Shown one piece after another: positions 5,232 to 58,498 of a DNA stretch of 64,000 nt (positions within the stretch are counted from its first letter, which is position 1; each line of letters begins with the position of its first letter). This DNA is from a virus. The notes below the pieces were generated by a model. That model had not been told where the DNA came from. It worked only from the letters and a program-made list of their open reading frames with translations, and made no database searches. Position numbers and translations under genes: made by a program. The DNA is taken from IMG/VR virus record IMGVR_UViG_3300025141_012985, positions 20,178 to 84,177 of that record, one strand, 5' to 3'.

Positions 5232-5233
5232 CT

Positions 5234-5861: not shown

Positions 5862-5886
5862 CTAATTGATATGAATATTTAGTTAT

Positions 5887-7767: not shown

Positions 7768-7807
7768 TTACCATCTAAGATCATTTAAAAAAATCTTCTC
7801 TAATTTC

Positions 7808-7836
7808 TGAACATATTTTGCAATTGACTGTATTAT
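7808..7836 (+). promoter_or_regulatory. Class A promoter TGAACA-N17-TATTAT
   Basis: Upstream of the SSB/recA operon. Confidence 0.55.
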
Positions 7837-7841
7837 TATAC

Positions 7842-7862
7842 TGTGATATGAATTATATCACA
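7842..7862 (+). promoter_or_regulatory. Inverted repeat TGTGATAT-GAATT-ATATCACA (leader hairpin or operator)
   Basis: Perfect 8-bp stem at the predicted transcription start. Confidence 0.5.
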
Positions 7863-7908
7863 CAGCTAATATTGCCAATTTACCAGTTTAAAAATTTAGG
7901 AGGTTAAC

Positions 7909-8688: not shown

Positions 8689-8697
8689 TTAGAGACT

Positions 8698-8724
8698 TGG
8701 GGGGGATTTTCCCCCCACATTTCT
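8698..8724 (+). terminator. Intrinsic terminator or stabilising hairpin
   Basis: TGGGGGGGA-TTT-TCCCCCCA followed by CATTTCTT, right after the SSB stop. Confidence 0.65.
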
Positions 8725-8760
8725 TACTCTATTTAGAAATTGATACATGGAGAGTGTACT

Positions 8761-9903: not shown

Positions 9904-10889
9904 GGTGTGACTTGAGTAAGATAGAGCCCGTTGTCTTAGTAGACGCATTTAACCTTTTTATGAGGCACTATGTCGCTCATCCTGCCATGAGTGATCAAGG
10001 GAATCATGTTGGCGGTATAGTTGGGTTTTTAAATGCGATAAAGAAGATATGCCTTGAAATGTCACCCACAGACGTTGTAGTGGTCTGGGAGGGAGGCGGC
10101 TCTAAGAAGAGAAGGGATATACTTCCCACCTATAAGATGAGCAGAAGACCTCAAAAGCTAAATCGATTTTATGAAAACGATGATATTCCCAATACAATTG
10201 AGAATAGAAATGATCAGATTTCATTTTTAATATCGTCGCTAAAGCGTCTACCAGTAATTCAGGTCTACGTTGATAGCTGTGAAGCAGACGATGTCATAGG
10301 ATATCTCTCAAGATATAAGTTCAGACATCATAAAAAAGTTATTGTCTCTTCTGATCGAGACTACTACCAGCTTCTAGACAACAAGACAGTCATTTATTCT
10401 CCGACGTGGAAGAAATTTGTTAATAAAAAGGAAGTTATAGAAAAATTTAGAATAAGTCCGACTAACTTCTGTCTTGCAAAGGCTATATGTGGAGACCCTT
10501 CTGACAATATCAAGGGTGTAAAGGGAGCAGGATTTAAGACAATATCAAAAAGATTTCCTGCACTATCTACAGATGATGACTGCACCATATTAGACATAAT
10601 TTCAGAAGCCAAACAAAGGGCTCAAGAGAAGAGATCTCCTAAGATTTTTAAAGAAATAGCTGTGAGTGAGAACATAATTAGAATGAACTGGAAATTAACT
10701 TATCTAGACACTTCAAACATCTCTCACGCACAAATTAAAAAGATTGAAAGTTCAATTGATACTTTTAGCCCTTCACCAAATAAAATATCACTAATCAGGA
10801 TGATGATAAAGAATGGAATTCAAAATCTTGATGTTGATCACCTTTTTCTATCAATGAGGAACATTGGAAAACGTAGTAATGATAAATGA
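9900..10889 (+). CDS. 5'-3' exonuclease / RNase H (PolI N-terminal, T4 RNase H family)
   Basis: LVDAFN, YKMSR, EADDVIG, SSDRD, GDPSDNIKGVKGAG. Confidence 0.9.
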   Translation: MRCDLSKIEPVVLVDAFNLFMRHYVAHPAMSDQGNHVGGIVGFLNAIKKICLEMSPTDVVVVWEGGGSKKRRDILPTYKMSRRPQKLNRFYENDDIPNTIENRNDQISFLISSLKRLPVIQVYVDSCEADDVIGYLSRYKFRHHKKVIVSSDRDYYQLLDNKTVIYSPTWKKFVNKKEVIEKFRISPTNFCLAKAICGDPSDNIKGVKGAGFKTISKRFPALSTDDDCTILDIISEAKQRAQEKRSPKIFKEIAVSENIIRMNWKLTYLDTSNISHAQIKKIESSIDTFSPSPNKISLIRMMIKNGIQNLDVDHLFLSMRNIGKRSNDK

Positions 10890-12273
10890 GTTTGCTTCTA
10901 AGGGACCTGCACACTTTAAACAGTATGGCAAGTCTTTTCAGGAGAAGATCTTTCAGTGTTTAATCACTGACAAGAACTGGTCTACACAAATGTCGGAGGT
11001 TATGACGCCGACATATTTTGACTTAAAGTACCTGAGGTATTTATCAGATAAGTACTTCACCTATTATTTCAAATATAAAGACTTTCCCACTCTACCCCTT
11101 TTAATCACAATAGTTCGTGATGATCTTAGAGAGGGAAAGGATGTAATTCTTAGAGATCAAATAGTTGAGTTCTTACATAGGATCAGAATGAATCCTGATA
11201 TAGGAGATCTTAAGTTTGTCAAAGAAAAGACACTTGATTTCTGCAAGCAGCAGGCAATGAAAGAGGCTTTAGAAGAAGCTGTTGAAAGAATTTCAGATGG
11301 AAAGCTTGAGTCAGTGATGGATCTCATGAGACATGCTCTATCTGTGGGAATGCCTGCATCAATCGGTCATGATTTTATGGAGGATGCAGAGGCAAGGTTT
11401 GTTCACATCAGTAGATGTGCGTGTCCTACAGGGATTCCGCAGCTTGACAAGAAAGATATTTTAAATGGCGGACTGGGACGAGGCGAAATTGGAGTAATTA
11501 CTGCAAATACGGGTGTCGGAAAGAGTCACTTTCTTGTTAGCGTGGGTGCGGAAGCGCTTAGACGTGGAAAGAATGTCATTCATTATACATTTGAGCTTTC
11601 AGAGACTGCAGTCGGCTTAAGATACGACTCTAATTTTTGTGACATTCCAAGCAATGAAGTTATTGATAGAAAGGAAGAGGTTCTTAAAAAATATGAAAAG
11701 ATGGATCTTGGCAGGTTAATCATTAAAGAATACCCGACCGGATCAGCTACAGTAATGATGATTAGAAATCATCTAGAAAAATTATCGCTGAAAGCGTTTG
11801 TCCCAAGTTTGATCATAATTGATTATGCAGATATTATGAGATCTTCTAGGAAGTATGATTCGCTTAGACATGAGCTTAAGTTGATTTATGAAGAATTAAG
11901 AAATCTAGCCATGGATATGAACATTCCTATCTGGACTGCTTCTCAGGCCAATAGAGATTCTGCAAATTCAGACATAGTCGGACTTGAAAATATGTCAGAA
12001 GCGTATGGAAAGGCGATGGTCGCGGATGTTGTTGTTTCAATTTCTAGAAAGCCAACAGAAAAGTCGAGCGGTCTCGGTAGAATATTTATTGCAAAAAATA
12101 GAGCAGGAAGAGACGGTATTTTATTTCCAATGAGAATGGATACTGCTAGGTCAAAAATCCTTGTTGTCGATAGCGATGATGAGATGACTCTAAGCGAGGC
12201 CTTACGGTCAGACAATAATGATATGAAAACCATATTGAAGAATAAGTGGAAGGAGATTAACAGTACTAGTTAG
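10879..12273 (+). CDS. Replicative DNA helicase (DnaB/gp41-like)
   Basis: ANTGVGKS, TFELSE, IIDYAD, WTASQANR, KNRAG. Likely ATG at 10879 (track 10864). Confidence 0.92.
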   Translation: MINEFASKGPAHFKQYGKSFQEKIFQCLITDKNWSTQMSEVMTPTYFDLKYLRYLSDKYFTYYFKYKDFPTLPLLITIVRDDLREGKDVILRDQIVEFLHRIRMNPDIGDLKFVKEKTLDFCKQQAMKEALEEAVERISDGKLESVMDLMRHALSVGMPASIGHDFMEDAEARFVHISRCACPTGIPQLDKKDILNGGLGRGEIGVITANTGVGKSHFLVSVGAEALRRGKNVIHYTFELSETAVGLRYDSNFCDIPSNEVIDRKEEVLKKYEKMDLGRLIIKEYPTGSATVMMIRNHLEKLSLKAFVPSLIIIDYADIMRSSRKYDSLRHELKLIYEELRNLAMDMNIPIWTASQANRDSANSDIVGLENMSEAYGKAMVADVVVSISRKPTEKSSGLGRIFIAKNRAGRDGILFPMRMDTARSKILVVDSDDEMTLSEALRSDNNDMKTILKNKWKEINSTS

Positions 12274-14788: not shown

Positions 14789-15391
14789 ATGAAGTGGACG
14801 ACAAAAATATCTCCCCTCGTTAAAGAGGTGGAGCTGAGAAAGAATCCAGTAATTATTACTGTTAATAAGTTTGATGAAAAATCAGCAAAAGAGTTTCAGC
14901 AACAAGTAGCACAAGCACACAATACAGGTCAAAAAGTGATCCCAGTAGTTATTGACTCGTACGGAGGCCAGGTCTATAGCCTTATGTCAATGATAAGTGC
15001 AATTTCTCATTCAGAGCTACCTGTTGCAACTATTGTTGAGGGAAAGGCAATGTCATGTGGTGCCATCCTCTTCTCTTTTGGTGAGCAGGGAATGAGGTTT
15101 ATGGATCCTGACGCTACAGTCATGATTCATGATGTGTCTAGCATGGCATGGGGAAAAGTTGAAGAAGTGAAAGTCAGTGCTGATGAAACAGAAAGGCTAA
15201 ATCAAAAAGTCTATACAATGATGGCGAGAAATTGTCGAAAGAAGGATGATTACTTTCTAAAGATTGTACATAGAAAAGGACATGCAGACTGGTTCTTGGA
15301 CGCTGCTGAGGCTAAAAAGCATGGAATGGCAAATCAACTAAGAGTTCCTAAGGTTAATATCAATGTTTCTGTTGACATAGACTTTGAGTGA
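14789..15391 (+). CDS. clpP: ClpP-family serine protease
   Basis: IDSYGG, AMSCG (Ser), MIHD (His), DWFLDA (Asp). Confidence 0.85.
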   Translation: MKWTTKISPLVKEVELRKNPVIITVNKFDEKSAKEFQQQVAQAHNTGQKVIPVVIDSYGGQVYSLMSMISAISHSELPVATIVEGKAMSCGAILFSFGEQGMRFMDPDATVMIHDVSSMAWGKVEEVKVSADETERLNQKVYTMMARNCRKKDDYFLKIVHRKGHADWFLDAAEAKKHGMANQLRVPKVNINVSVDIDFE

Positions 15392-28418: not shown

Positions 28419-28658
28419 ATGAAAGACATTGAATCTATTATTATCATAATCGTGTTTATGATATCACTATCTTTTGTCTTAAACTTTATTGGAAGCACAC
28501 TTATTGACATTATGCACTCTATTTTTCACAAGCAAGGTCAAAGAAAGCATCGATTGAACAATATCAAAAATCCTCAGTATGATATTTCTGAGGATGATAA
28601 TGACCTGGATACCTCCGAAATCCCCGTACAATCTAATTCAAGAGCATCTTTGGAATGA
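28419..28658 (+). CDS. Small membrane protein
   Basis: N-terminal hydrophobic helix; overlaps the next gene. Confidence 0.4.
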   Translation: MKDIESIIIIIVFMISLSFVLNFIGSTLIDIMHSIFHKQGQRKHRLNNIKNPQYDISEDDNDLDTSEIPVQSNSRASLE

Positions 28659-29025
28659 TCCATGGAAAATATTTGTAGCTTGCATTTTTTGCAATCTTAC
28701 AAAAAGGGTTGAATCTGAGCCCTATATGTGGAAATTTTTTAAGCTATATCCGACACCAGAAAAAGCATCTAAGGCAAATCCTGATAAACTACAAAAGATG
28801 ATTCAGCCGCTAGGATTGTCTAAGAGACGTTCTAGGGCACTTATCAAAATGTCCAATGATTACCTAATGAAAGACTGGAGAGATAAGCCAGAATCTCTCT
28901 ACGGAATAGGGAAGTATGCCTCAGATGCGTATAGAATATTCTGCATGGGTGACTGGAGAAATGTTGATCCAAAAGACGGTGCTCTTGTCAGCTATCATGA
29001 TTTTTTAAAATCTACCGTTCCTTAG
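28600..29025 (+). CDS. MBD4-like HhH DNA glycosylase
   Basis: WIPPKSPYNLIQE.LWNDPWK...PLGL...GIGKYASDAYRIFC...YHDFL is collinear with the MBD4 glycosylase domain; catalytic Asp retained. Likely ATG at 28600 after GAGGA. Confidence 0.85.
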   Translation: MTWIPPKSPYNLIQEHLWNDPWKIFVACIFCNLTKRVESEPYMWKFFKLYPTPEKASKANPDKLQKMIQPLGLSKRRSRALIKMSNDYLMKDWRDKPESLYGIGKYASDAYRIFCMGDWRNVDPKDGALVSYHDFLKSTVP

Positions 29026-29780: not shown

Positions 29781-30005
29781 ATGAACTATAGCCTTTCAAA
29801 TGAAGTTATTGCACATCTTGCCAAAGTTTTGCAAATGGCAATCTTAAGCGGGACTGATGTTATCGACCATCTAAGAATGATTAATGTTACACCGTCTGAA
29901 GAGACTGATGGGGAGCTAGTTCTTACTAGTGAGTATCGTGAAATATCAGATAGTCAAGTTCAAAAAATGCTTGAAAATGTAAGTGCATTGTCAATTGAAG
30001 ACTGA
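29781..30005 (+). CDS. Hypothetical protein
   Basis: RBS AAGGAG; TATAAT at 29749. Confidence 0.6.
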   Translation: MNYSLSNEVIAHLAKVLQMAILSGTDVIDHLRMINVTPSEETDGELVLTSEYREISDSQVQKMLENVSALSIED

Positions 30006-30013: not shown

Positions 30014-30382
30014 ATGGATAGACTTGATGAAATGTTTGATCGAAGACATGAATTTATGGACGTCTTAAACCAAAAGATCCCAGGAGCTTCTCCACTAGAC
30101 CTAGATCTAAGTAAAAAAGAAGATCAGCAAATTTGTCGAGATGTTGCTCTTCGAGGTGTCGAAGAAATGTTCGAAGCTCTTCAGCATCTTAAAAACTGGA
30201 AGCCCCATAGAGTTACAGATATTTCTGGATTTGATAGAGAGAAATTTCTTGAAGAAATGGTAGATGCTTTCAATTATTTTTTCTCTCTACTCATTATGAC
30301 TGGATTTGACGCTGAAGATCTGTTTAGAGAATACTGTAGAAAAGATAGTGTAATTCATAAAAGACTAGAGGAGGGATATTAG
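30014..30382 (+). CDS. All-alpha NTP pyrophosphatase (dimeric dUTPase/dCTPase/MazG-like)
   Basis: EEMFEA...NWKPH...EEMVDAFNY...KDSVIHKR. Confidence 0.75.
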   Translation: MDRLDEMFDRRHEFMDVLNQKIPGASPLDLDLSKKEDQQICRDVALRGVEEMFEALQHLKNWKPHRVTDISGFDREKFLEEMVDAFNYFFSLLIMTGFDAEDLFREYCRKDSVIHKRLEEGY

Positions 30383-30436: not shown

Positions 30437-31390
30437 ATGAGAGATTTAGGATATTTTTTTAATCGTCAGAATAAATTTTCTGATCTTTTCTTTAAAAGTG
30501 AAGACATGACTGAAGCAGAGAGAGAGGAGATGACAAAATCTCTTGCACTTGCTCTTCACGCTGAAGTTTCTGAACTGATAAGCGCAGTTAATTTTAAGGA
30601 CCATAGGCAGCTTAAGAATGCTGCTGATCCTTCAAAGATTCTATATGAATCAGTTGATGTTTTTAGGTACTTATTGGCAATTTTAAATCTTTGGAATATT
30701 GACCCTGGATCAGTCATAGATGCTTTTGATGATAAAGACATGTTTCTTCACATGAGACATCAAATAGAATCTCAATTTTGGGATGGACAACCCGTCCTTG
30801 TGTTTGATATTGATGACGTAATTGCACACTTTAGATCTAACTTTATCGACTGGCTTGAGTCTGAGAAGGGAATAGTTGTCGACAGTAAATCTACAGAGTA
30901 CTACACGACTATAGAAGTTAAAGAAGCTGGGCTGAATCCAGAAGAAGTGTTTGATGACTTTATAGCTGATCGAAATTTAAGACACCTTACATCCGACAGC
31001 GGGGTAGTTGATGTTATAAACTATTTTTATGACAAGGGTTGTTGGATTCAGCTTCTTACTGCAAGACCAGGAGATGTTCTTCAGTGCAAGTATGATACGT
31101 ATAGATGGCTTAGTACACTGGGTATGAAATTTCATAGAGTTGATTTTAGTGCTGAGAAGTACAGGTGGCTAACAAAATCCGAATATTTTGATTCCGGCCA
31201 GATTGTTTGTGCAATTGATGATTCAGCTAAGCACTCTGCTGAATATGCAAAGCATGGAGTCATAACACTTTCTCCAGTTACTTCATACAATAGAGAGCTG
31301 GAAGATGTTGAAGGTGTCATGATGTATTATGGCCCAAGTCAGCTAAAGACCCTTATTGACGCACTTCTAGTAAAGGGAAAATTTATATGA
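30437..31390 (+). CDS. Fusion of an all-alpha NTP pyrophosphatase and a HAD 5'-nucleotidase-like domain
   Basis: N-terminal EVSEL...NFKDH...ESVDVFRY; C-terminal FDIDDV, LTAR, IDD. Confidence 0.75.
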   Translation: MRDLGYFFNRQNKFSDLFFKSEDMTEAEREEMTKSLALALHAEVSELISAVNFKDHRQLKNAADPSKILYESVDVFRYLLAILNLWNIDPGSVIDAFDDKDMFLHMRHQIESQFWDGQPVLVFDIDDVIAHFRSNFIDWLESEKGIVVDSKSTEYYTTIEVKEAGLNPEEVFDDFIADRNLRHLTSDSGVVDVINYFYDKGCWIQLLTARPGDVLQCKYDTYRWLSTLGMKFHRVDFSAEKYRWLTKSEYFDSGQIVCAIDDSAKHSAEYAKHGVITLSPVTSYNRELEDVEGVMMYYGPSQLKTLIDALLVKGKFI

Positions 31391-31448: not shown

Positions 31449-32450
31449 ATGCCCCAGAATCGTGATTTAGACCCAATTGAGCTTCCAATGAAGCTAAAGT
31501 TTGGTCAAGATCCTTCAACTGAATTTTTTAACAATCTTTCAGCTCTAACAGTTGAATTAGTTGACCACCCAACGAGAGAGCAAGCTCGAAATGTTGCATG
31601 GCAGTATGTCAAAGCAACATGGGCTGATCATGCTGATGATACATCACCCTATGTCGACGAGCTTCGACCCACTAGCCAGGATCTTTCAGAAAATCTTGAA
31701 GATGTTCTTTGTTTCAGGGCGCTTCCAACACCCATGGAGTGCTTTGGGTTTACATTTAAGCTTAGCGGGCTTTCTTTTCAGGAGGTCACTCATATTATTA
31801 GACATCGTGCAGGATCTTTTGCAGCACAGTGCACAGGTGATAGAGACCTAAGAGACGATCCTGCTGTCATACCAGAGGCAGTAGAAAATTCACCAGAATT
31901 TTTGAGAAGGTGGAAGCAGATTGTGCTAGACTCTAAGCAGCTCTATTCAGATATGACTGACTCAAAGGCGGTTTCAATGATGGATGCTAGAATGATTCTT
32001 CCAAAGTGTATGACATCTTTTTACTTAATGAGACTTAATCTCAAAGATCTGCTTGGGTTCATTAAGCAAAGACAAGATATTCAGATTCAACCCGCTGCAG
32101 ATAATCTTCTTGCTGCAATGATGGCAAAAGAACTCATTAAGGTTCTCCCCGAAGCTTCTGTGAGAATTGATTTTAACTCTCCAGACATGCACTACATAAA
32201 GACATTTCGAATAAAGCAGGGAGATAGGTGGATTAGTCGAGGAACAAATTTGTACTGGCCTGAGCCCAAGAATGATAGATTTGAATATCATCCAAGTGAC
32301 ACAATCTACCAGTCTCGTAGAGAAAAGATTAATGGAACAAATAGACCTAGCGGTCCAACTAAATTTGAGAAGATATGGAATGATATTATGGATGAAATTT
32401 CTACAATGAAGATTTCATATAAAAATTACATGAATGGAGAATGTACATGA
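31449..32450 (+). CDS. Divergent ThyX-fold flavin-dependent enzyme
   Basis: FTFKLSGLS...RHRAGSFAAQCTGDR...DARMILP...NLKDL...QR. The Ser of RHRx7S is Cys. Confidence 0.8.
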   Translation: MPQNRDLDPIELPMKLKFGQDPSTEFFNNLSALTVELVDHPTREQARNVAWQYVKATWADHADDTSPYVDELRPTSQDLSENLEDVLCFRALPTPMECFGFTFKLSGLSFQEVTHIIRHRAGSFAAQCTGDRDLRDDPAVIPEAVENSPEFLRRWKQIVLDSKQLYSDMTDSKAVSMMDARMILPKCMTSFYLMRLNLKDLLGFIKQRQDIQIQPAADNLLAAMMAKELIKVLPEASVRIDFNSPDMHYIKTFRIKQGDRWISRGTNLYWPEPKNDRFEYHPSDTIYQSRREKINGTNRPSGPTKFEKIWNDIMDEISTMKISYKNYMNGECT

Positions 32451-32887
32451 AAGCGTATATTGCAAGCTCTTGGTTCACACCGGCTGCATTTGAAGAAGTT
32501 GAAACAATTAAGTCACTTTTAACAAAACACAGGTTTGATTATTTTTCACCTAAGGATTTTTTTATATGTCCCCCAACAGCTGATCTTAAGACACAAAGGG
32601 AAACATTTGAAGGAAATGTTGAGCATATTCTTGGAAATGATTTTGTAATTTGTAATACACGAGACAAGGATATGGGAAGTATATTTGAAGCTGGTGTTGC
32701 ATTTCAATCTGATACTCCAATAGTTTATTTTTGTGCAGGACTTCCAGAGGGAGCAACATTTAATCTAATGTTAGCACAGTCAGGCGTGAAGGTTTGTACT
32801 TCTTTTGATGACCTGGATGACTATCTCTCTAGATGTGCTGATTTAGAAATGCTTATTATTGAGCCGTATTATGGAAGTATCGAATAA
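32441..32887 (+). CDS. Nucleoside 2-deoxyribosyltransferase / N-glycosidase family protein
   Basis: YIASSWF, FSP, DMGSIFEAG (catalytic Glu), NLML. Confidence 0.8.
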   Translation: MYMKAYIASSWFTPAAFEEVETIKSLLTKHRFDYFSPKDFFICPPTADLKTQRETFEGNVEHILGNDFVICNTRDKDMGSIFEAGVAFQSDTPIVYFCAGLPEGATFNLMLAQSGVKVCTSFDDLDDYLSRCADLEMLIIEPYYGSIE

Positions 32888-33128
32888 AGTATTTGCTCTC
32901 ATACGATATGAGGGATCTTTTAAAAGTTTAGTTGGAATATTTTCTACATGCGAGTGTGCAAAAGAAGAAGTAGAAAAAGAAGATAGGCGTGATGTTCTAT
33001 TTTCCATTCAAGAGAGGGTGATAAATTCTACCAATGAACCAGAATATGAAATAGAAGTCAAATATGCACTGGATGGTCAAAAATCTGAGATGATAGTAAC
33101 AAGAAACTCTGTTGAGAATAATAGTTGA
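32859..33128 (+). CDS. Hypothetical protein
   Basis: Fills the gap between coupled genes. Confidence 0.45.
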
Positions 33129-34195
33129 AAAAAGATTATTATGACTTACTGGGTGTCAAGAGAGATTCATCTCAGAGCGAGATCAAGAAAGCGTATAGAC
33201 AGCTAGCTTTAAAGCATCATCCCGATAAAAATCCAGATAATCCGAGTGCAGAATTAAAATTTAAAGAAGCTGCAGAGGCGTATTCTGTTCTTTCTGATAG
33301 TGAAAAAAGAAAGAATTATGACATGTACGGTCACGACGGCGTTGAACACAGCTTTTCTGGATTTGACCCTAGAGATATCTTTGGTCATTTTGAGAATATG
33401 TTTGGAGGATTTGATCATTTCTCCGATAGACAGAGAAGATGGCGAAATGTTAGACAAAGAGGTTCTGATACTAGATTTAAGGTAAAGATAGATCTTGAAG
33501 AAGTTTTGTCTGGATGTAGTAGAAAAGTTCTCATTAAAAAAATAGTCAGCTGTCAGATCTGCAAGGGCCAAGGGTTCAAAGATAAATCAGACACTACTAG
33601 ATGTGCACAGTGTAAGGGATCAGGAAGAATTCAGCAAGCTGTTAGAGGATTTATGACAATTGCATCTCCCTGTCACTCTTGTGCCGGACATGGATTTGTC
33701 GTTACCAAGACATGCAAGTGCTGTCACGGATCTGGAGCAATAAAAGAAAGAAAGGATATCAACGTCACAATACCACCAGGTGTTCATACAGGAAATATTC
33801 TTAAGCTTTCTGGAATGGGAAATAAAGAGTCAACAGCAGAAATAGCAGGAGACGCACTCATAGAAATTGAAGTCAATGAGCATTCAAAGTTCCATCGAAA
33901 AGGTGTCGACATTCACAGCCACACCTCTATCTCATATAGCGAAGCAGTCCTCGGAACAAGGATAAGTGTCGGGTGTCTCGATGGAAAGTCTGCAATAACG
34001 ATCCCGCCGGGAATACAGCCGGGAGAGATAGTCGAGATAAGCGGGGAAGGCCTACCTGTAAAGTTAAACTCTTCAGACAGGGGAGTACATCATGTTCATA
34101 TTTCAGTAAGTGTTCCTAAAGAAATATCACAAGAAGAAAGAGAATTGATTGAAAATCTAGAGTCTCTAAGGCTTAGAAAAAGATTTATTGATTGA
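33125..34195 (+). CDS. dnaJ: Chaperone DnaJ
   Basis: J domain with HPD, G/F region, four CxxCxGxG repeats, C-terminal domain. Confidence 0.95.
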
Positions 34196-37848: not shown

Positions 37849-38757
37849 ATGCTAACGTTTCCAATTAACATGATTTCAATAGAGGGGCCAGACCTTTCTG
37901 GAAAGACAACCCTAATCAATGACATTCACAAGAAGACGAATTATCGGTGGCATCTAATGGATAGGTCAAAGCTTTCTAGAATGGTGTTTGCCAAGATGTA
38001 TGATAGAGACGTTGAACAAACTACAAGAGAGTTCTACGAAGAAGTTAGTAATCTAAACAATAGATGTGTCTTTTTAATGCCCACATTCGAAGTTCTGGAG
38101 GAGAGATACAAAACTCGTGGTGATGAAATTCATACAATTGATACGCTAAGAGAGTCATACAATTTATTTTTTAAAGAATTTACTAGACTCCCATCTTTAT
38201 CAAACGTCTATGGAATTATGAATGGTTCGTCTGGAAGATTAAGTAATATGGTTATTGACTATCACAATTGCATTGAAAAGTATCTAACACTCAAAGAGGT
38301 CTATGGTCAAGTACAAAATTTTGTCAAGCACTTTCCGAACAACGAATGCAATCAGCTAACATTCACGCTTCACGACAGCGGTGAGTTTAAAGAGTCAAAC
38401 ATAGCCTCTATGAGTGAAAAATCAGAAAAAGAATACTATCATAGAATTTATGACTCTTTAATGAATAAAATTGATGATGAACAGTCTGGAAAGAATCCAT
38501 ACTCAAGAAAAGAAGGTTTAGATTCAAGAAGGTATGTCTTTACAGAAGACACATGCATCTCAATGATTCATATTTTGAATAGGGATTCTGTTCTAGATGT
38601 GCGATTTGTTTGTAGATCTACTGATATTAATAATAAGTTTGAACATGATTTAAATTTCTTATACTTTATAGCTTCAGAGTGCTGGAATTTGCTTGGTGGT
38701 GGATGTAATTTTTGCAAAATGCATTTCACCTTAAACTCTGCACACATTCTTGAGTAA
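37849..38757 (+). CDS. Fusion of a dNMP kinase and a truncated thymidylate-synthase-fold domain (dCMP-type Asp)
   Basis: EGPDLSGKTT and DRS kinase motifs; C-terminal SRR...TCIS...RSTDINNKFEHD...SAH. Confidence 0.75.
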   Translation: MLTFPINMISIEGPDLSGKTTLINDIHKKTNYRWHLMDRSKLSRMVFAKMYDRDVEQTTREFYEEVSNLNNRCVFLMPTFEVLEERYKTRGDEIHTIDTLRESYNLFFKEFTRLPSLSNVYGIMNGSSGRLSNMVIDYHNCIEKYLTLKEVYGQVQNFVKHFPNNECNQLTFTLHDSGEFKESNIASMSEKSEKEYYHRIYDSLMNKIDDEQSGKNPYSRKEGLDSRRYVFTEDTCISMIHILNRDSVLDVRFVCRSTDINNKFEHDLNFLYFIASECWNLLGGGCNFCKMHFTLNSAHILE

Positions 38758-38776: not shown

Positions 38777-39781
38777 ATGGAAAAGAGAGCTTTAGTTACG
38801 GGTGGGTGTGGATTCATCGGTTCAAATCTGACAAGAGAGCTTATTAAGCAGGGCTGGATGGTCGACATTGTAGATGACATGTCGAATGGTCACCTGGAGC
38901 TTCTAGAGGGATTAAATTTTAGAGTCATTCCCAGTTCAGAGTTTCTTATTGAGTTTAATAAGCAGTCTGGAAGGGGAAGGGAAACAGTTGTCGTTATTCA
39001 AGATGACTTTGCATCTCCGGGAATATCATATCAGATATCTAAAAAGATGTATGATGTTGTGTTCCACCAAGCTGCGATCCCTAGAGTTTTATTTTCTGTT
39101 GAAAATCCTGCAATGACAACAGATACAAATATTGGATCAACAGTTAAATTATTTGAAGCCTGCATCGGAAATGTTAAAAGAATTGTCTGGGCTTCATCCT
39201 CTTCAGTGTACGGAGGTGCTGATTTGATGCCTACTTCTGAGGATCATCCGAAGGATCCTAAATCTCCATACGCCTGGCAGAAATCTTCAATAGAAGATCT
39301 GTCTAGAGTTTTTTGCAATCTCTACAATATTGATATTGTATGCTTAAGATATTTTAACGTTTTTGGTCCAGGACAGTACGGAGATTCTCCCTATTCCACT
39401 GCAGTTTCTGCATGGTGCAATGCCATCTTAGAGGGAACACCCTTGAGAAGTGACGGTGACGGAACACAGTCAAGAGATCTTTGCTACATTGACAATGTCG
39501 TTCAGGCAAATATTTTAGCTGCAAATCGTGACGAAAGCTTTGAGGGACAATATTATAATATTGCGTGCGGAGATCGAACGACAAATAATCAAATTCTTAA
39601 TTTCTTTAAAGATAGATTTTCTAATGTTGAAGTAGTCAATGCACCGTGGAGACCTGGAGATGTCATGCACACACAGGCTGATATTACAAGAGCTAGGGAG
39701 GATTTTGGATACGAACCTGTTGTGAGAATTTGGGAAGGACTAGAAAAAACGGTCGAGTGGTGGGATCTAAAGGATGAGTAA
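38777..39781 (+). CDS. NAD-dependent nucleotide-sugar epimerase/dehydratase
   Basis: TGGCGFIG, SSSSVYG, YAWQK, LRYFNVFGP. Confidence 0.9.
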   Translation: MEKRALVTGGCGFIGSNLTRELIKQGWMVDIVDDMSNGHLELLEGLNFRVIPSSEFLIEFNKQSGRGRETVVVIQDDFASPGISYQISKKMYDVVFHQAAIPRVLFSVENPAMTTDTNIGSTVKLFEACIGNVKRIVWASSSSVYGGADLMPTSEDHPKDPKSPYAWQKSSIEDLSRVFCNLYNIDIVCLRYFNVFGPGQYGDSPYSTAVSAWCNAILEGTPLRSDGDGTQSRDLCYIDNVVQANILAANRDESFEGQYYNIACGDRTTNNQILNFFKDRFSNVEVVNAPWRPGDVMHTQADITRAREDFGYEPVVRIWEGLEKTVEWWDLKDE

Positions 39782-40205
39782 GGGAATTTGGAGAGGTAAT
39801 TCTTCCAGACATATAAAGCCCTGGGGGGAAGAGGTTACCTGGGTAGGACCAAGTGCCTATGGAAAGATTTTAACAGTTAGCTCAGGAAAGAGCCTAAGCT
39901 TTAAGATGAATAAGGTTAAAACTGAGACACTATTTGTCGTCCAGGGAAGAATAATAGTTCAGTGTGCTGATCAAGGGTTCTTTGAAGATCCACCAAACTA
40001 TCCAATGCGTGAAATGGTGTGTACTCAAGGGGAGTGTCTAAGCATTCAGTCTGAATGTCCATATAGAATAACTGCAGAAATTGATTCAATAATATTTGAA
40101 ATAGGGGACATGCCGCATGATGCATCCTTTAGAATTATAGATGACTATGGCAGAGAAGACAAGTCTCTTTCACATCTTGCGGAGATTATAATTGAGAATT
40201 CCTGA
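39774..40205 (+). CDS. Cupin (mannose-6-phosphate isomerase C-terminal-like)
   Basis: KPWG...KIL...SLS...KxETL; ends DDYGR. Confidence 0.65.
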   Translation: MSKGIWRGNSSRHIKPWGEEVTWVGPSAYGKILTVSSGKSLSFKMNKVKTETLFVVQGRIIVQCADQGFFEDPPNYPMREMVCTQGECLSIQSECPYRITAEIDSIIFEIGDMPHDASFRIIDDYGREDKSLSHLAEIIIENS

Positions 40206-40749
40206 GTTTATCATTTTTACTGGCCCTATGTTCGGATCTAAGACGACTAGGTTGCTCGCTGTCCTAGACCGCTTCAGGTACCAAAATAGAAATATTACAT
40301 GCTTTAAGCCTGCCATGGATGATAGATATTCTTCTGGAGAAATCTGTACACACTCAGGTGGAAAGATTGACGCTGTTTGTGTAAAAACAGGTGAAGATAT
40401 ATTAAAATACTTACAGGATAAAGAAAATATTCATGTTATTGCAGTTGACGAGGCTTTTATGATAGATGGTTCTGCATCAGCACTTCTTTCTCTTTTTAGA
40501 GAGGGAAAGACAATTGTCGTATCTTCTCTTCAACTTTCCGCTAGTGGAAATGTATTTGAAGAAATTAGGGATATGATGCCATGGGCAACAAAAATTGAGG
40601 TTTGCCCAGCTGTGTGTCCAATTTCTGGACAAGATGCATACTATACACATAGAAAGCTTTCAGGTCTTGATGAAATTACTGTCGGAGGATCTGAGCTTTA
40701 TGAGCCAAGGTCATGGTTTCATCACAATTTTATGAATCAGTCAAAATAG
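40192..40749 (+). CDS. tdk: Thymidine kinase
   Basis: GPMFGSKT, FKPAMDDRY, VDEAF, VGGSELYEP. Confidence 0.9.
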   Translation: MRIPEFIIFTGPMFGSKTTRLLAVLDRFRYQNRNITCFKPAMDDRYSSGEICTHSGGKIDAVCVKTGEDILKYLQDKENIHVIAVDEAFMIDGSASALLSLFREGKTIVVSSLQLSASGNVFEEIRDMMPWATKIEVCPAVCPISGQDAYYTHRKLSGLDEITVGGSELYEPRSWFHHNFMNQSK

Positions 40750-40784: not shown

Positions 40785-41774
40785 ATGATTGAACCAACCA
40801 GCGTGAATTGTGTAATCTATCATGCAAATTGTACAGACGGATTTGGTGCTGCTTATTCTGCCTGGAAGCTGCTAGGCAATCGTGCTGAGTACCATGCATG
40901 TAAGCACGGAACTCCTCCCCCAGATATAAAAGATAAAAATGTCGTAATTTTAGATTTTTCCTTCGATAACACAACTACTAAAAAAATGATTGAAGAGGCT
41001 AATGCGCTTCTAGTCATAGATCATCATAAGTCAGCCATGGTAGAGCTTCATGATATATCAAATACAGTTTTTGATATGACGAAATCTGGTGCAATGCTTT
41101 CATGGGAATTTTTTCATCTAGGAAAAGAGCCGCCAAAATTCATCAAGTATATTCAAGATCGCGATCTTTGGAAATGGGAGCTTGACTATTCTAAAGAGTT
41201 TAGCGCAGCATTTGATATGGTGCCATTTGAATTTGAGGAATTTGAAAAGTTTGAAGATGACTCTGTATTTGATGATGCTGTAAAGCGCGGATCCTATATA
41301 CTTGCATACAGCAAGACAGTTATTAAAAAGGTGTGTGAAAAGGCAGTTGAGAGAAGATATAAAGGAATGAAAGTCATGGTGGTTAATTCTTCTCACTGGA
41401 TGTCTGAGATTGGTGCTAGGTTGGCACCAGACTGTGACTTTGCAGTTATATGGTACTATGATCATGAAGACAGAATTAACAAGATAAGTTTGCGTGCTTT
41501 TCATGACGCAGTTGATGTTTCTGAAATTGCAAAGGGCTTCGGCGGTGGCGGGCATAAGAAGGCAGGTGGCTTTCAAATAAGCGGCGAGCTCTGTGTTGAT
41601 GATATTTTTGATCCCGAGGTAGAGGATGAACATGAAGACCCAGTTGATACTTCTGCTGCAAGGGAAGAGCTTAAAAAGATTCAAAGTGCGCTTGATGAGG
41701 AGTGTGATAAAGAGGCAGTTGCAAAGGTTGAAGAGATCTTAGACAAGATTGAATCTTCCAAGGATGAGGAATAA
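40785..41774 (+). CDS. DHH/DHHA1 phosphoesterase (NrnB-like)
   Basis: YHANCTDG, DHHKS, DRDLW, GGGGHKKAGG. Confidence 0.88.
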   Translation: MIEPTSVNCVIYHANCTDGFGAAYSAWKLLGNRAEYHACKHGTPPPDIKDKNVVILDFSFDNTTTKKMIEEANALLVIDHHKSAMVELHDISNTVFDMTKSGAMLSWEFFHLGKEPPKFIKYIQDRDLWKWELDYSKEFSAAFDMVPFEFEEFEKFEDDSVFDDAVKRGSYILAYSKTVIKKVCEKAVERRYKGMKVMVVNSSHWMSEIGARLAPDCDFAVIWYYDHEDRINKISLRAFHDAVDVSEIAKGFGGGGHKKAGGFQISGELCVDDIFDPEVEDEHEDPVDTSAAREELKKIQSALDEECDKEAVAKVEEILDKIESSKDEE

Positions 41775-42505
41775 TGTCGTATTTGGGATTTACTAGATCA
41801 ATCTGTAGATACTATCTCTCACAGATAGATTTTCCAAAAGTTTTAGAAATAGGTGTAGACAAGGGCCAGACAGCTATCCCATTAATTCAAAACTTATGCA
41901 CTACAAAAAGACAATTTATGTATGCTGGAATAGATGTTCTCTTATCAAGAGACCTCATCGAGCAGATTGGTCAATTTGAAAATATGTCAGTTAGCTGGCA
42001 TGATGATCTGACAGACAGAGTTGTAATGATGTTTGAAGAAAATAGCCTAGACTGGCTGGGAAATAATCAAGACAGCTCACTAAAGTTTGATTTAATCCTT
42101 ATTGACGGAGATCACAATTATTATACTGTGTTCAATGAATTAAATCTCATTCAGGCAATAATAAAGCCGACTACACTTATAGTTTGTGATGATTTCCAGG
42201 GAAGATACAGTGAAAAAGATATGTTTTACTCAGAGAGAGAAGAATATAAAGATGTGCCTGATATGACACCTCGTAAAATTACTAAAAAAAGCGGAATTAG
42301 AAGTGCTGTTATTGACTTTAGAGATCAGTCTCCCCTAAGCTGGAGAGTGGACACATTCGGACCATCTGATCCGTGTTTTCTCTATCAAGAAGATTTTTTA
42401 GAAGCGTGGGCTGATCCGCCAGAGAATACACTGTTACGAGATATGAAAATATCTTTCTCCTTTAAGGGTGAGAAACAGTCTGAATCTTCTAGGGATGAAG
42501 AATAA
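41774..42505 (+). CDS. Class I SAM-dependent methyltransferase (Methyltransf_24-like), copy 1
   Basis: LEIGVDKG, IDGDHNY, VCDD. Confidence 0.75.
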   Translation: MSYLGFTRSICRYYLSQIDFPKVLEIGVDKGQTAIPLIQNLCTTKRQFMYAGIDVLLSRDLIEQIGQFENMSVSWHDDLTDRVVMMFEENSLDWLGNNQDSSLKFDLILIDGDHNYYTVFNELNLIQAIIKPTTLIVCDDFQGRYSEKDMFYSEREEYKDVPDMTPRKITKKSGIRSAVIDFRDQSPLSWRVDTFGPSDPCFLYQEDFLEAWADPPENTLLRDMKISFSFKGEKQSESSRDEE

Positions 42506-43224
42506 TGTCATATTTAGGATTTACCAGATGTATCAGCAGATATTATTTGTCACAGATAGACTTTCCAAAGATATTGGAGATTGGTATTGACAAGGGACAG
42601 ACTGCAATTCCGCTAATTCAAAATCTCTGTATTTCAAAGTCTACATTTATGTATGCAGGCATAGACATTCTTTTAAGAAACGAGCTCCTAGAGCAAATAT
42701 CTCAATTTGAAGGAATTACAGCTAGCTGGCTTGATGAGCTTGATGATAGGGCTGTCATGATGTTTGAAGAAAATAGCCTAGACTGGCTGGAAAATAATCA
42801 AGATGCTGATATAGAATTTGATCTTGTTCTTGTCGATGGAGATCATAATTATCATACAGTGTTCAATGAGCTTAAGCTCATTGAGTCTTTGATAAAACCT
42901 GCTACACTTATAGTTTGTGATGACTATCAAGGGAGATACAGTGAAAAAGATATGTTCTATTCAGAGAGAGAAGAGTATAAGGACGTAGAGGGAGCTACTC
43001 ACAGAGTTGATTCAAAAAAGCAGGGTGTTAGAAACGCAGTTATTGACTATACCAATCAATCGAAATTTGAGTGGAGGGTCGATAGATTTGGACCTTCTGA
43101 GCCTTGCTTTTTGTATCAGCCAGAATTTCTAAAAGTTAATGCAAAGCCTGCAAAGTGTGCTAGACTTAGGGATATGGAAGCTGATTTTATTTTCAACCCT
43201 GAAGAGAAATTTTTAGTCCGATGA
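42505..43224 (+). CDS. Class I SAM-dependent methyltransferase (Methyltransf_24-like), copy 2
   Basis: Tandem paralogue of copy 1 with the same motifs. Confidence 0.75.
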   Translation: MSYLGFTRCISRYYLSQIDFPKILEIGIDKGQTAIPLIQNLCISKSTFMYAGIDILLRNELLEQISQFEGITASWLDELDDRAVMMFEENSLDWLENNQDADIEFDLVLVDGDHNYHTVFNELKLIESLIKPATLIVCDDYQGRYSEKDMFYSEREEYKDVEGATHRVDSKKQGVRNAVIDYTNQSKFEWRVDRFGPSEPCFLYQPEFLKVNAKPAKCARLRDMEADFIFNPEEKFLVR

Positions 43225-43640
43225 GACCCACGTGGCATCAGATATGGATGGACTTTTCTTATTTAATAGCTGGAAGGTCCGTTGACCCTCGACATCAAGT
43301 AGGGGCAGTTGTTGTAACAGACGATAATACTCAAGTATTAGCAGTTGGATATAACGGAAACTACAAGGGAGGACCTAATGAGGTTGAATCTCTATCTCCC
43401 GGAGAGTCTGGAATGATTCATGCTGAGATAAATGCTCTCTTAAAGATGGACTATAACAATCCCAAGAGAAAGATAATGTATGTTACATTAAGTCCGTGCA
43501 GAATGTGTGCAAAGGCAATTGTTAATTCAGGCATCTCTGCTGTCGTGTATCTAGAAGAGTACAGAGATACGTCTTCTTTAAAAATCTTAAGGGATGAGGG
43601 AATAGAAGTCATTAAGTTTATCTCCAAGGATGATAATTAG
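43221..43640 (+). CDS. dCMP deaminase
   Basis: GYNG, HAEINA, SPCRMC. Confidence 0.9.
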   Translation: MRPTWHQIWMDFSYLIAGRSVDPRHQVGAVVVTDDNTQVLAVGYNGNYKGGPNEVESLSPGESGMIHAEINALLKMDYNNPKRKIMYVTLSPCRMCAKAIVNSGISAVVYLEEYRDTSSLKILRDEGIEVIKFISKDDN

Positions 43641-43662: not shown

Positions 43663-43953
43663 ATGACAAGGATGTTGTCAAGTAGTGACATTTTAAATCT
43701 AATTTCTAAAGAAAGGCATAAGATTGATCTATCTGAGGGCGGGAGTATTCCAGTCTTTGCAGGATCAGGTGATAGAAAGGTGCCCCTAGTAGGGAAAGGA
43801 TTCAAAATACGTCACAAAGATTCTGGTTACACATATACTTGTGTAAAATTAGTAGATGACGGAAACAAGTCTACTGTCATTGTTCAAGACGATGGAGTCG
43901 GAGACTATCATGCAATACCGAGCGAAGATTTATCTAAGTACGAGAGGATGTAA
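43663..43953 (+). CDS. Hypothetical late protein
   Basis: ATAATTA at 43633-43639; RBS GGAG; LSE site. Confidence 0.5.
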   Translation: MTRMLSSSDILNLISKERHKIDLSEGGSIPVFAGSGDRKVPLVGKGFKIRHKDSGYTYTCVKLVDDGNKSTVIVQDDGVGDYHAIPSEDLSKYERM

Positions 43954-44687
43954 TGTCAATCATCACAGATGAAAAAATAATTCAAAGTATACGAGAAACG
44001 CTCGGATTTGACGAGGAAGAGCGGAAAGAGCTAAAGAAAGAACCCAGAGAGAATCCAATCCTCTCTGAATCATATGTGGCTCAAGAAAAGAGATTCAGTT
44101 TACCTACTGAGCTTTTAAGCGGAGCAAACAAGCAAAGTCACAAAGAGCTCTATCTTCAGTATATCGAAGATTTTAATAGGATAAGCGCAGAGCTAGATAC
44201 AGTAAATCGTGACGAAGTCACTTCAAATCATTCAGAATATAGATCACTTAAGATAGATGAGACTTATAACATGAATGCTGTATACCTTCATGAGTTATAC
44301 TTTTCAAACATCAGCGATCTACAAAGTCAGATCGGGATGGATTCACTTGCGTATATGCGCCTTTCAAGAGATTTTGGCGGATTTGATGAGTGGCAAAAAG
44401 ACTTCATAGCATGCTGTTCATCTGCTAGGTGCGGATGGGCAATAACTTATTTTAATACTTACTTGCAAAGATATGTCAATACAATTGTTGATCTTCATAG
44501 CTTAAATGTTCCAGTTGGCGGATATCCAATTATCGTTATGGATGTTTGGCAACATGCTTACTATAGAGACTATCTTAATGATGTTAAGACATATACATAT
44601 GGAATGATGAAACAGCTAAATTGGAATGTTATAGAAAAGAGATTTCAAAGATCAGAAAAAATTGCAAATGCGCTGAGGGGATTATGA
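43953..44687 (+). CDS. Fe/Mn superoxide dismutase-like protein with an N-terminal extension
   Basis: HKELY, LHELYF, GWA, MDVWQHAYY. Confidence 0.8.
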   Translation: MSIITDEKIIQSIRETLGFDEEERKELKKEPRENPILSESYVAQEKRFSLPTELLSGANKQSHKELYLQYIEDFNRISAELDTVNRDEVTSNHSEYRSLKIDETYNMNAVYLHELYFSNISDLQSQIGMDSLAYMRLSRDFGGFDEWQKDFIACCSSARCGWAITYFNTYLQRYVNTIVDLHSLNVPVGGYPIIVMDVWQHAYYRDYLNDVKTYTYGMMKQLNWNVIEKRFQRSEKIANALRGL

Positions 44688-48831: not shown

Positions 48832-49272
48832 ATGAAACCTCTTTTAGAAGTTGTTGGTAGATCAATATTAAGAGAGGAGAGCAGGAGTCAGATGAAAGGT
48901 ATTGGATCTATTCTCGGTAATTTATCACCGGGTGTTCTTGGAAGTTTACCAGTTCAACCAAATAGGACAGAGTGGGTTGTTGTTGATGATCAAACCGTTG
49001 AAAGGCTTGTGAGAACATTTGAGTTTAATGACGCTAAAAGGGTAAAAGACTTTGTTACACATCTTATCTTTGAGCAAGAAGAAATGCAACATCATGCTAG
49101 AATTATTATAGAAGGTAGAGAAGTTACTATCGAAACATACACTCACAATGTTAATGAGGTGACAGAGCTAGACAAAGAGCTGGCTAAGTTTTGTGATGAC
49201 CTATACAGAGATGTTCAAGATTTTTATGGTGATCGAGAAGCAGAGGTGATAAATGACAATTATGATGAGTGA
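48832..49272 (+). CDS. Pterin-4-alpha-carbinolamine dehydratase-like protein with an N-terminal extension
   Basis: LVRTFEF...HHARI...YTH...TELD..LA..CD. Confidence 0.75.
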   Translation: MKPLLEVVGRSILREESRSQMKGIGSILGNLSPGVLGSLPVQPNRTEWVVVDDQTVERLVRTFEFNDAKRVKDFVTHLIFEQEEMQHHARIIIEGREVTIETYTHNVNEVTELDKELAKFCDDLYRDVQDFYGDREAEVINDNYDE

Positions 49273-58306: not shown

Positions 58307-58498
58307 ATGAGTATTGAAAAGATTCTACCAGATTCTGACATAAAGAATCTAAGATCACAAGGAATTCTTGAAGACTGTGAAGTTGCAATTCAAGTTGGAG
58401 ATATAGTAATTGCTGAAAATGTTCTTACTAAATCTAGAAGGGTTTTAGATTCTAGCTTAGTCTTATCTGAATCAAATAGAAAAATTCTAAAGGGATGA
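58307..58498 (+). CDS. Hypothetical protein
   Basis: Coupled to groEL by an ATGA overlap. Confidence 0.55.
   Translation: MSIEKILPDSDIKNLRSQGILEDCEVAIQVGDIVIAENVLTKSRRVLDSSLVLSESNRKILKG

Follow-up and report, generated by a model that had tools for sequence, protein, structure and literature searches.

A rewired ThyX paralogue linked to a nucleoside 2-deoxyribosyltransferase gene in a predicted phage nucleotide-tailoring module

The window, a stretch of 64,000 nucleotides of viral DNA (bases 20178-84177 of the 84,177-bp IMG/VR record IMGVR_UViG_3300025141_012985, CheckV completeness 25%), comes from a large marine myovirus-type phage. It encodes a ThyX-like protein of 333 residues (31449..32450, + strand) with a rewired active site, and the gene overlaps a gene of the nucleoside 2-deoxyribosyltransferase (NDT) family (32441..32887, + strand). 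We propose, tentatively and at somewhat less than an even chance for the two statements taken together, that the ThyX-like protein is a neofunctionalised ThyX paralogue and not the dTMP synthase of the phage, and that it would make or tailor a pyrimidine with a C5 substituent other than methyl within a phage nucleotide module.

The ThyX-like protein matched Pfam Thy1 (PF02511) with an E-value of 1.1e-17 and 64.9 bits (cut-off 24.8), residues 37-235 aligning to positions 2-191 of the 191-position profile. The ThyX core (about residues 37-235) is preceded by a conserved N-terminus (MPxN) and followed by a C-terminal extension of about 90 residues, and an AAGGAG sequence lies 7 nt before the ATG. 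The AlphaFold2 (AF2) model reached a predicted local distance difference test score (pLDDT) of 95 and a predicted template modelling score (pTM) of 0.91. In Foldseek, the top matches of the model were PolB (4p5b) and ThyX, with a probability of 1.00 to many ThyX chains and template modelling (TM) scores normalised to the target of 0.64-0.79; the matched ThyX structures were those of M. tuberculosis, C. glutamicum, T. thermophilus and T. maritima. As a single sequence, the protein found one weak match in the PDB by phmmer, 3g4c (T. maritima ThyX, E 0.27), and because of this weakness profile-profile alignment and the fold search were used. An alignment of 34 subfamily sequences was compared by hhalign with 11 canonical ThyX sequences, drawn from related phage genomes and from a representative search. 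It gave a probability of 99.5% and an E-value of 5.7e-23 over 188 columns, was gapless through the signature, and had a register identical to that of the phmmer map.

The ThyX signature of the protein reads RHRAGSFAAQCTGDR. In T. maritima numbering (the chain index of 3g4c minus 12, for a 12-residue tag), the kept residues are E58 (E97 in the window protein), R78/H79/R80 (R118/H119/R120), S83 (S123), R147 (R181), N163 (N197), R174 (R208) and Q180 (Q214). The changed ones are H53 to L92, H59 to C98, R74 to T114, Q75 to H115, E86 to A126, S88 to C128, G89 to T129, R90 to G130 and Y91 to D131. The original prediction, made by eye, that Ser88, Arg90, Glu86 and Arg74 had become Cys, Gly, Ala and Thr is borne out, since the phmmer and profile-profile alignments agree on it. 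The FAD-binding RHR and the downstream residues, which it held to be kept, are retained in the alignment as well (RHR and the equivalents of R147, N163 and R174). In the T. maritima enzyme, R147 and R174 presumably contact the nucleotide, R74, S88, R90 and R147 are taken here to bind or ligate its phosphate, and H53 presumably stacks on the folate.

The replacement residues are themselves conserved. Residue counts refer to the 34 subfamily sequences, which stand at 25-100% identity. R118, Y166, R208 and P271 were retained in all 34, R181 in 33 and E97 in 30, and the RHR motif was found with R118 in 34/34, H119 in 25/34 and R120 in 32/34. At the replaced positions, H115 was present in 33/34, D131 in 32/34, L92 in 30/34, A126 in 30/34 and T114 in 28/34, and R/K132 in 32/34. 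Position 128 was Cys in 27/34 and Ser in 2/34, and position 130 was Gly in 25/34 and Ala in 6/34. The canonical signature S-x-R-Y was not found in the family: Arg at the R90 position occurred in 0/34 sequences, and so did His at the H53 position. In the LPTPMEC segment, which had been read as an altered His53 motif, the loss of His53 holds for the family (Leu in 30/34), but the Cys is not a family feature (Cys in 5/34, Thr in 16/34). Among the 120 closest database proteins, RHRAGSFAAQCTGDRDL was exact in 119, and the remaining one differs in its fourth residue, T in place of A. The orthologue of the Geobacillus phage GR1, at 46% identity, retains AQCTGDR and the C-terminal extension. These patterns indicate a new pocket that is under selection: one conserved pocket has been swapped for another and has not decayed. 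C128 is common yet not universal, which argues against an obligatory nucleophile.

An exhaustive scan of 1.84 billion cluster representatives gave only 394 clusters (50% identity) at E <= 1e-3, and canonical-motif proteins appeared only at the weak end of these. A quick IQ-TREE search with 103 rows (midpoint-rooted, with support from the Shimodaira-Hasegawa-like approximate likelihood ratio test (SH-aLRT) only, and with some long branches) recovered a rewired clade of 52 rows with SH-aLRT 100. This clade contained 30/34 of the C[TS][GA]D[RK] rows, 6/6 of the x-[GA]D[RK] rows and 0/10 of the canonical rows, and it was nested in an 82-row clade with support 95, likewise with 0 canonical rows. 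The CTGDR clade linked to NDT that the original prediction had named as a phylogenetic check is therefore present, and its NDT linkage extends across unrelated phage lineages. Among 185,579 species genomes the rewired family was found in only 2 contigs, L110 and L111, from metagenome-assembled genomes (MAGs) labelled Clostridia bacterium and Methanobacteriota archaeon; these are probably phage contigs binned into MAGs, because they carry a phage-type module with PolIII alpha. The rewired clade is large and virus-restricted, with members both in marine giant phages, which are widespread, and in small phages whose hosts are Firmicutes-like.

The rewired gene coexists with a canonical one. Two Thy1 genes were found in 5/5 large related genomes (61-100% complete), where the canonical Thy1 scored 129-174 bits in open frames of 227-267 residues and the rewired one 65-70 bits. 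The canonical signature HTSTLEH ... RHRTWSYNEISRRY ... GAQWEIQ was read in 4/5 of these genomes; the motif patterns did not recover the canonical Thy1 of G005 (129 bits) in its locus L088. In 18/79 marine loci the rewired gene is preceded, at 2.5-6.6 kb, by a canonical copy. In a sister lineage (L098-L109), a canonical-type gene (KHRIGVSVNAESARY) comes before the ThyX-like gene by about 3-8 kb; this second Thy1 has KHR for RHR and an otherwise canonical signature. Another genome, G007, also has both a canonical-type and a rewired Thy1. In the window's own record, a fragment of 25% completeness, no second Thy1 and no ThyA were found. The earlier claim of a function other than standard dTMP synthesis is supported in so far as a conserved rewired paralogue coexists with canonical ThyX in 5/5 genomes, and its other part, flavin chemistry on another nucleotide, stays an inference.

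The NDT-family gene encodes 148 residues and matched Nuc_deoxyrib_tr (PF05014, E 1e-10, 42.2 bits, cut-off 28.8) and phrog_7995 (E 1.4e-21). With the ATG at 32441 as its start, it overlaps the ThyX-like gene by 10 nt, and with the ATG at 32447 by the 4 nt ATGA. The overlap noted in the original prediction is confirmed by the latter start, as the TGA at 32448-32450 shares bases with the in-frame ATG at 32447. This start is the likelier one because the orthologues begin MKAY. Searched against the PDB, the NDT profile matched 6evs (76 bits, E 1.8e-20) and 1s2d, a purine deoxyribosyltransferase (E 1.7e-12), with DNPH1 at E 0.14 and 14.9 bits, and no chain named MilB or BlsM was among the matches at E <= 1. 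Y6, D77, E83-A-G, F107-N108 and the C-terminal E148 are invariant in 23 NDT sequences, and E83 aligns to the Glu of WELG and Y6 to the Tyr of IYLAS in 6evs. E83, in the D-x-G-T-x-x-E-x-G segment, is presumably the catalytic Glu, and the N-terminal Tyr is taken to be functional. The protein appears to resemble the true nucleoside deoxyribosyltransferases and not DNPH1 or MilB, so that its description as NDT/MilB/DNPH1-like probably narrows to the first of these. The gene had also been supposed to remove or swap the base; swapping at the nucleoside level is likelier than nucleotide hydrolysis, because the matches are to nucleoside transferases.

The predicted coupling of the two genes is upheld as a linkage across unrelated phage lineages. 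In the marine loci (80, at 57-88% identity, one lineage), NDT is downstream of the ThyX-like gene in 76/76 loci with flank, overlapping or within 80 bp in 59 and at 183-1585 bp in the other 17; three loci ending about 1 kb from the ThyX-like gene and one with the gene cut by the contig end were left out of this count. More distant loci were added because the 80 marine loci represent one lineage. All 9 informative loci of the sister lineage L098-L109 have NDT, which adjoins the ThyX-like gene in 2 and follows it at 6-8 kb in 7; three more loci of this lineage are truncated. In the remaining 12/12 loci (GR1, L089-L091, the 'CSGDK' group L092-L097, L110 and L111), NDT precedes the ThyX-like gene at a distance of 0.5-4.4 kb. 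The linkage is kept in the sister lineage and in the other lineages, including the L089 phage, which carries a family-A polymerase, and it has therefore survived rearrangement and a change of phage type. In L092, L096, L097 and L110 the NDT domain is within an open reading frame (ORF) of 307-335 residues under the longest-ORF rule, and the extra half may be a fusion or an over-extended start.

NDT is not the sole partner. The recurrent marine order is g29781 - MazG1 - MazG2/HAD - ThyX-like - NDT. The gene directly upstream of the ThyX-like gene (30437..31390, +) encodes an N-terminal all-alpha NTP pyrophosphatase of the MazG/dimeric-dUTPase-like type fused to a C-terminal HAD-type phosphatase. 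It scored 22.5 bits to dUTPase_2, slightly below the cut-off of 22.9, and matched PRA-PH, phrog_415, phrog_420 and phrog_173; its profile reached the dimeric dUTPase 1w2y at E 2.6e-4. The HAD DxD motif is D124/D126, and D124, D126, D127, T208, K241, D261 and D262 are invariant. This fusion is directly upstream of the ThyX-like gene in 65/80 marine loci. A small MazG/dimeric-dUTPase-like pyrophosphatase gene (30014..30382, +; PF08761 27.6 bits, phrog_12184 E 7.7e-17) is present in 73/80 marine loci, and MazG-like ORFs are also beside the ThyX-like gene in L089, L092-L097, L110, L111 and GR1. The MazG profiles matched dimeric dUTPase only weakly, from which no base specificity can be assigned. 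In the complete 43.5-kb genome G006 (locus L089), the operon runs NDT - HD-type 5'-deoxynucleotidase - small P-loop kinase - ThyX-like - MazG-like, and the HD/YfbR-like 5'-deoxynucleotidase scored 66.9 bits. In GR1, an annotated HD-domain gene adjoins NDT.

The nucleotidase slot is thus filled by non-homologous proteins, HAD fused to MazG in the marine phages and HD/YfbR-like in L089, which suggests that a step from dNMP to deoxynucleoside is required. The deoxynucleoside is the substrate of a true NDT. By gene content, the constant core consists of the ThyX-like protein, NDT, a 5'-nucleotidase (HAD or HD), a P-loop kinase and a MazG-like pyrophosphatase, with NDT as one of five constant partners. 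The module adjoins the phage DNA polymerase. Further downstream in the window, as part of a wider nucleotide module, are genes for thymidine kinase (40192..40749, +; PF00265 104.9 bits), found within 10 kb in 16/80 marine loci, many of which are too short to reach it, and for dCMP deaminase (43221..43640, +; PF00383 79.4 bits), which is also near the ThyX-like gene in L091, L092, L094, L095, L107 and L111.

The kinase of the source phage is part of a fusion (37849..38757, +), in which a deoxynucleoside/dNMP kinase (about residues 2-151) is followed by a mini thymidylate-synthase-fold domain (mini-TS, about residues 160-302). Its AF2 model has pLDDT 93.2. In VIA-align, residues 2-151 matched YorR with Z 13.8, deoxyadenosine kinase (dAK) with Z 12.4 and thymidylate kinases (TMPK) with Z of about 11. 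The top Foldseek matches of the mini-TS were 9iqu (the dCMP hydroxylase AfhB with dCMP) and 9iqc, whose title is 'monooxygenase dependent on riboflavin with dCMP and FAD', at E 1.9e-6 and a TM score normalised to the target of 0.48; ThyA, T4 dCMP hydroxymethylase and MilA followed. In the ESM Atlas the mini-TS scored 0.92 to viral clusters, 15-17% of them with PF00303 (Thymidylat_synt). PF00303 was not found in the window's record, nor above its cut-off in the five large genomes. It scored 53.6 bits on the G007 orthologue, which stands beside the ThyX-like gene, and covered positions 88-219 only. The mini-TS is too divergent for this profile, except in G007. It is without the N-terminal half of ThyA.

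Mapped to ThyA, Cys236 of the mini-TS corresponds to C146, R256/S257 to R166/S167 and D259 to D169, Asp267 stands at N177, and the L143 position is polar. The spacings of 20 from C to R and 11 from R to D agree with the ThyA numbering given by PMC13326640. All 26 orthologues and the standalone forms share C236 and D267, and D267 is read as a dCMP-type Asp because it stands at the N177 position. The 5-hydroxylase diagnostic D169N, as proposed in PMC13326640, is absent from the window, where D259 is Asp; among the 26 orthologues this position is Asp in 17, Asn in 6 and Glu in 3. All five large genomes carry the fusion, and it is within 10 kb of the ThyX-like gene in 26/45 marine loci with at least 9 kb of downstream flank. 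In GR1, L092-L096 and L110 the mini-TS is a separate ORF directly after the ThyX-like gene (overlapping or within about 70 nt), in 7/7 loci with flank. The GR1 ORF had been considered as an NDT candidate; BLASTP found no similarity to NDT, and the ORF is the mini-TS. In the complete genome G006 (CheckV 100%), which has the ThyX-like core, no mini-TS, ThyA or canonical ThyX was detected.

In the proposed route, the ThyX-like enzyme would use reduced flavin for chemistry at C5 of a uracil-type deoxynucleotide, and the substituent of its product would be other than methyl; hydroxymethyl would be the simplest re-routing of the exocyclic-methylene intermediate of ThyX. The kinase would phosphorylate this product. 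The pyrophosphatase, the nucleotidase and NDT would degrade the competing canonical dNTP to dNMP, deoxynucleoside and free base in turn, and the deoxyribose would be recycled. The kinase-fused mini-TS with its dCMP-type Asp would add a second, cytosine-directed step in the source phage and in many others. A bolder version, which we hold to be rather improbable, is that the abundant, virus-only clade of ThyX-derived flavoenzymes is central to a hitherto undescribed pathway for a non-canonical DNA pyrimidine. The modified base would be made or exchanged at the deoxynucleoside level by the dedicated deoxyribosyltransferase and then re-phosphorylated, and in many phages the pathway would be a composite with a Cys-bearing mini-TS, lacking the folate site, that acts on dCMP.

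Several points weigh against a non-methyl C5 chemistry and a loss of dTMP synthesis. All the chemistry of the ThyX-like enzyme is inferred, and its AF2 model has a single chain, although several subunits contribute to the active site of ThyX. The retained R174 equivalent suggests a uracil-type base, if the role that we presume for R174 is right. Wholesale thymine exclusion in this lineage is argued against, because canonical ThyX, thymidine kinase and dCMP deaminase are encoded. The set of pyrophosphatase, 5'-nucleotidase, kinase, deaminase and thymidylate synthase also resembles an ordinary dUMP/dTMP supply, and the loss of the His that we take to stack on folate puts the use of folate in question. 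In GR1 and four small genomes (G006, G008, G009 and G010; CheckV 100% complete) the rewired protein is the sole Thy1 gene, and profile scans of these five found no canonical-scoring ThyA. It could therefore still be the thymidylate synthase of these phages. More generally, the protein might simply be a second, ordinary source of dTMP: a ThyX that has diverged yet remains a thymidylate synthase, perhaps with another reductant, oxygen tolerance or regulation, while its neighbours boost dTTP for an AT-rich genome. This would agree with the Thy1 score above cut-off, with the deaminase and thymidine kinase in the module, with the GC content of 34-45% in the window and with the five genomes just named; T. 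maritima S88 mutants presumably stay active, and the 3g4c entry itself has Cys at residue 88. We nevertheless consider it quite unlikely, as six catalytic-site positions are jointly exchanged for another conserved set, the clade stands apart from canonical ThyX, and a canonical ThyX is encoded in each of the five near-complete large genomes and close by in the marine loci counted above. The linkage to NDT, nucleotidase and kinase is moreover constant, and we know of no canonical thyX gene that needs these partners.

There are two further explanations. The ThyX-like protein could have lost nucleotide chemistry of its own and be the flavin partner of the mini-TS, either as an NAD(P)H-driven flavin reductase or as the carrier of a flavin-bound one-carbon or oxygen species, with the mini-TS modifying dCMP at C5 like AfhB and RB69 gp48. 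The adjacency in 7/7 loci and the fusion in all five large genomes fit such a partnership, as do the likeness of the mini-TS to AfhB and 9iqc, its missing N-terminal ThyA half, the retained flavin motif RHR beside altered dUMP-side residues, and the nitroreductase/dihydropteridine reductase annotated directly upstream in GR1. We still judge it rather unlikely. The ThyX-like enzyme is not merely an accessory of the mini-TS, because G006 has the core with no detectable mini-TS, and the strong conservation of the replaced pocket, with the R147 and R174 equivalents invariant, exceeds the needs of a plain reductase. In addition, the window has Asp259 at the D169N position, and the phages with 5-hydroxycytosine (5hoC) of PMC13326640 are not reported with a ThyX-like partner in its main text, where 'ThyX' occurs 0 times.

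Alternatively, and nearest to the original prediction, a ThyX-like enzyme that has lost 5'-phosphate recognition could modify a deoxynucleoside or a free pyrimidine base. NDT would then move the modified base onto deoxyribose, the kinase would make the dNMP, and the pyrophosphatase and nucleotidase would supply the canonical deoxynucleoside donor. The replacement of R74, S88 and R90, the presumed phosphate ligands, points in this direction, and so do the translational coupling (ATGA) of the ThyX-like gene with an NDT of the true nucleoside-transferase type, with its invariant catalytic Glu and C-terminal residue, and the dNMP-to-deoxynucleoside step conserved through non-homologous enzymes. 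The kinase, too, is as near to deoxynucleoside kinases as to dNMP kinases, or nearer (YorR Z 13.8, dAK Z 12.4). Yet the R147 equivalent, presumably a phosphate ligand, is retained in 33/34, NDT and thymidine kinase serve in ordinary salvage as well, and we know of no precedent for a ThyX-family enzyme acting on nucleosides or bases. We regard such a route as unlikely.

The neofunctionalised paralogue proposed here shares with ThyX/FDTS (TM0449 and M. tuberculosis ThyX) the fold, the RHR and the equivalents of R147, N163, R174 and Q180. It differs in that Ser, Arg90, Tyr91, Glu86, Arg74, Gln75 and His53 are replaced by conserved Cys, Gly, Asp, Ala, Thr, His and Leu, and in its extra conserved N-terminal residues, the C-terminal extension of about 90 residues and the invariant Pro271. 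To our knowledge, ThyX is known only as a methylase, in dTMP synthesis and, as PolB, for UMP/dUMP. PolB (4p5a/4p5b) is the best structural match to the window protein (E 1.6e-10, TM score normalised to the target 0.74), and is described as the ThyX-like UMP/dUMP C5-methylase of polyoxin biosynthesis (PMC5003785). It is a precedent for the recruitment of a ThyX-family enzyme to a non-DNA or non-standard pyrimidine; it is set apart, by its description, by methylation and by its place in an antibiotic cluster and not in a phage replication module, and it has 18% identity to the window protein.

In MilA/MilB and BcmA/BcmB, a ThyA-like CMP hydroxymethylase is paired with an N-glycosidase of the NDT family. 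The module here resembles MilA/MilB in pairing a C5-modifying enzyme of the thymidylate-synthase superfamily with the NDT superfamily, and the mini-TS has the MilA-like cytosine-type Asp. In contrast, the NDT of the window matches nucleoside transferases, the adjoining partner has the ThyX fold and not that of ThyA, and the context is phage DNA replication. The T4-type pathway comprises the dCTPase gp56, the dCMP hydroxymethylase gp42 and the dNMP kinase gp1, and 5-hydroxymethyluracil (hmU)/U phages have the thymine-exclusion enzymes dTTPase and dTMP nucleotidase. The logic is alike, in that the canonical dNTP is removed by a pyrophosphatase, the modified dNMP is made by a thymidylate-synthase-type enzyme and the kinase is a dedicated one. 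The difference is that the C5 enzyme here has the ThyX fold and that the module constantly includes NDT and a 5'-nucleotidase.

Synthesis of 5-hydroxy-dCMP with flavin and O2 by one branch of the ThyA superfamily, followed by glycosylation of the product in DNA, is shown in PMC13326640, where AfhB is attributed to He et al. 2026 (Nat Chem Biol). The mini-TS resembles these 5-hydroxy-dCMP synthases (RB69 gp48, DLP3 gp80 and HY126 AfhB) as they are described there, in the fold, the catalytic Cys, the Asp at N177 and the polar L143 position, and it is likewise paired with a dNMP kinase and a dCTPase-like pyrophosphatase. It is much shorter and lacks the D169N exchange, and no ThyX-like gene is mentioned for those phages in the main text of PMC13326640. 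The supplement of PMC13326640 lists nine IMG/VR thymidylate-synthase homologues, and mini-TS-like proteins may be among them. In a jumbo-phage survey (PMC7824862), ThyX is treated, where it is discussed, only as an alternative thymidylate synthase, and the passages of PMC8989533 that mention it use it only as mechanistic background. In the literature searched, largely titles and abstracts, no description of the rewired ThyX clade or of a ThyX-NDT module was found. The rewired ThyX is most fittingly classed as a functional variant of ThyX that is new and belongs to a likewise new nucleotide-tailoring module of phages. From so conserved a module we would expect an enzymatic activity not seen before and, probably, either a new DNA base or a new means of putting one in place. 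Should the bolder version above prove true, the rewired ThyX would be the first of its family to be anything but a methylase, and no earlier DNA-modification pathway would have depended on an NDT. The mini-TS partner would link the module to the newly found flavin-dependent dCMP hydroxylases. Because a rewired member is encoded by the cultured Geobacillus phage GR1, whose host is G. stearothermophilus ATCC 10149, the prediction can be tested directly there.

Other genes surround the module. The block is headed by a conserved ORF of 74 residues (29781..30005, +), which has no Pfam or PHROG match. Its orthologue is present in 68/80 marine loci, always ahead of MazG1, and also in L098-L109. Upstream of it, a 148-residue protein (28579..29025, +) is an MBD4-type mismatch DNA glycosylase domain; phmmer against MBD4 domains gave E 1.6e-40 and 141.9 bits, and the match to the mammalian MBD4 domain spans nearly the whole protein. 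MBD4 excises T, U or hmU that faces G once a (modified) cytosine has been deaminated. The gene was found in 23/80 marine loci and in 11/12 loci of the sister lineage L098-L109, a weaker linkage than that of the core. A pterin-4a-carbinolamine dehydratase (48832-49272, +; PF01329 60.1 bits) is encoded in 5/5 large genomes, 16-28 kb from the ThyX-like gene. Together with the GR1 reductase, this dehydratase hints that pterin or flavin may be recycled to serve a hydroxylation. A WbgU/WbpP-like UDP-hexose(NAc) 4-epimerase (38777-39781, +) scored 181 bits to PDB 3ru7, and two tandem Methyltransf_24 methyltransferases (41774-42505, + and 42505-43224, +) are within the replication/nucleotide module; the epimerase and the methyltransferases could act in the tailoring of a sugar or base. 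Among the window ORFs scanned, Pfam gave no glycosyltransferase. The MBD4-type glycosylase, the epimerase and the pterin dehydratase fit a modified-cytosine theme without proving it. A cupin identity considered for the ORF at 39774-40205 found no support. Promoter-like and terminator-like sites around the genes were not above shuffled expectation (17 versus 15.3 and 4 versus 2.5).

Related contigs reach 200-284 kb. In the same record outside the window, translations read by eye include a tubulin/FtsZ-like ORF with a GGGTGS-type motif (G000:C1:540-1772) and two paralogous ORFs of about 1000 residues resembling tail sheath (5073-11368). The tubulin/FtsZ-like and tail-sheath-like ORFs suggest a jumbo phage that may replicate in a tubulin-based compartment. 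Within the window, 33125-34195 encodes DnaJ, 58495-60111 a GroEL-type chaperonin, 14789-15391 a ClpP protease, 61593-62327 a sigma-70 family factor and 43953-44687 a protein with a superoxide-dismutase C-terminal domain. The phage DnaJ is full, with J domain, zinc finger and C-terminal domain.

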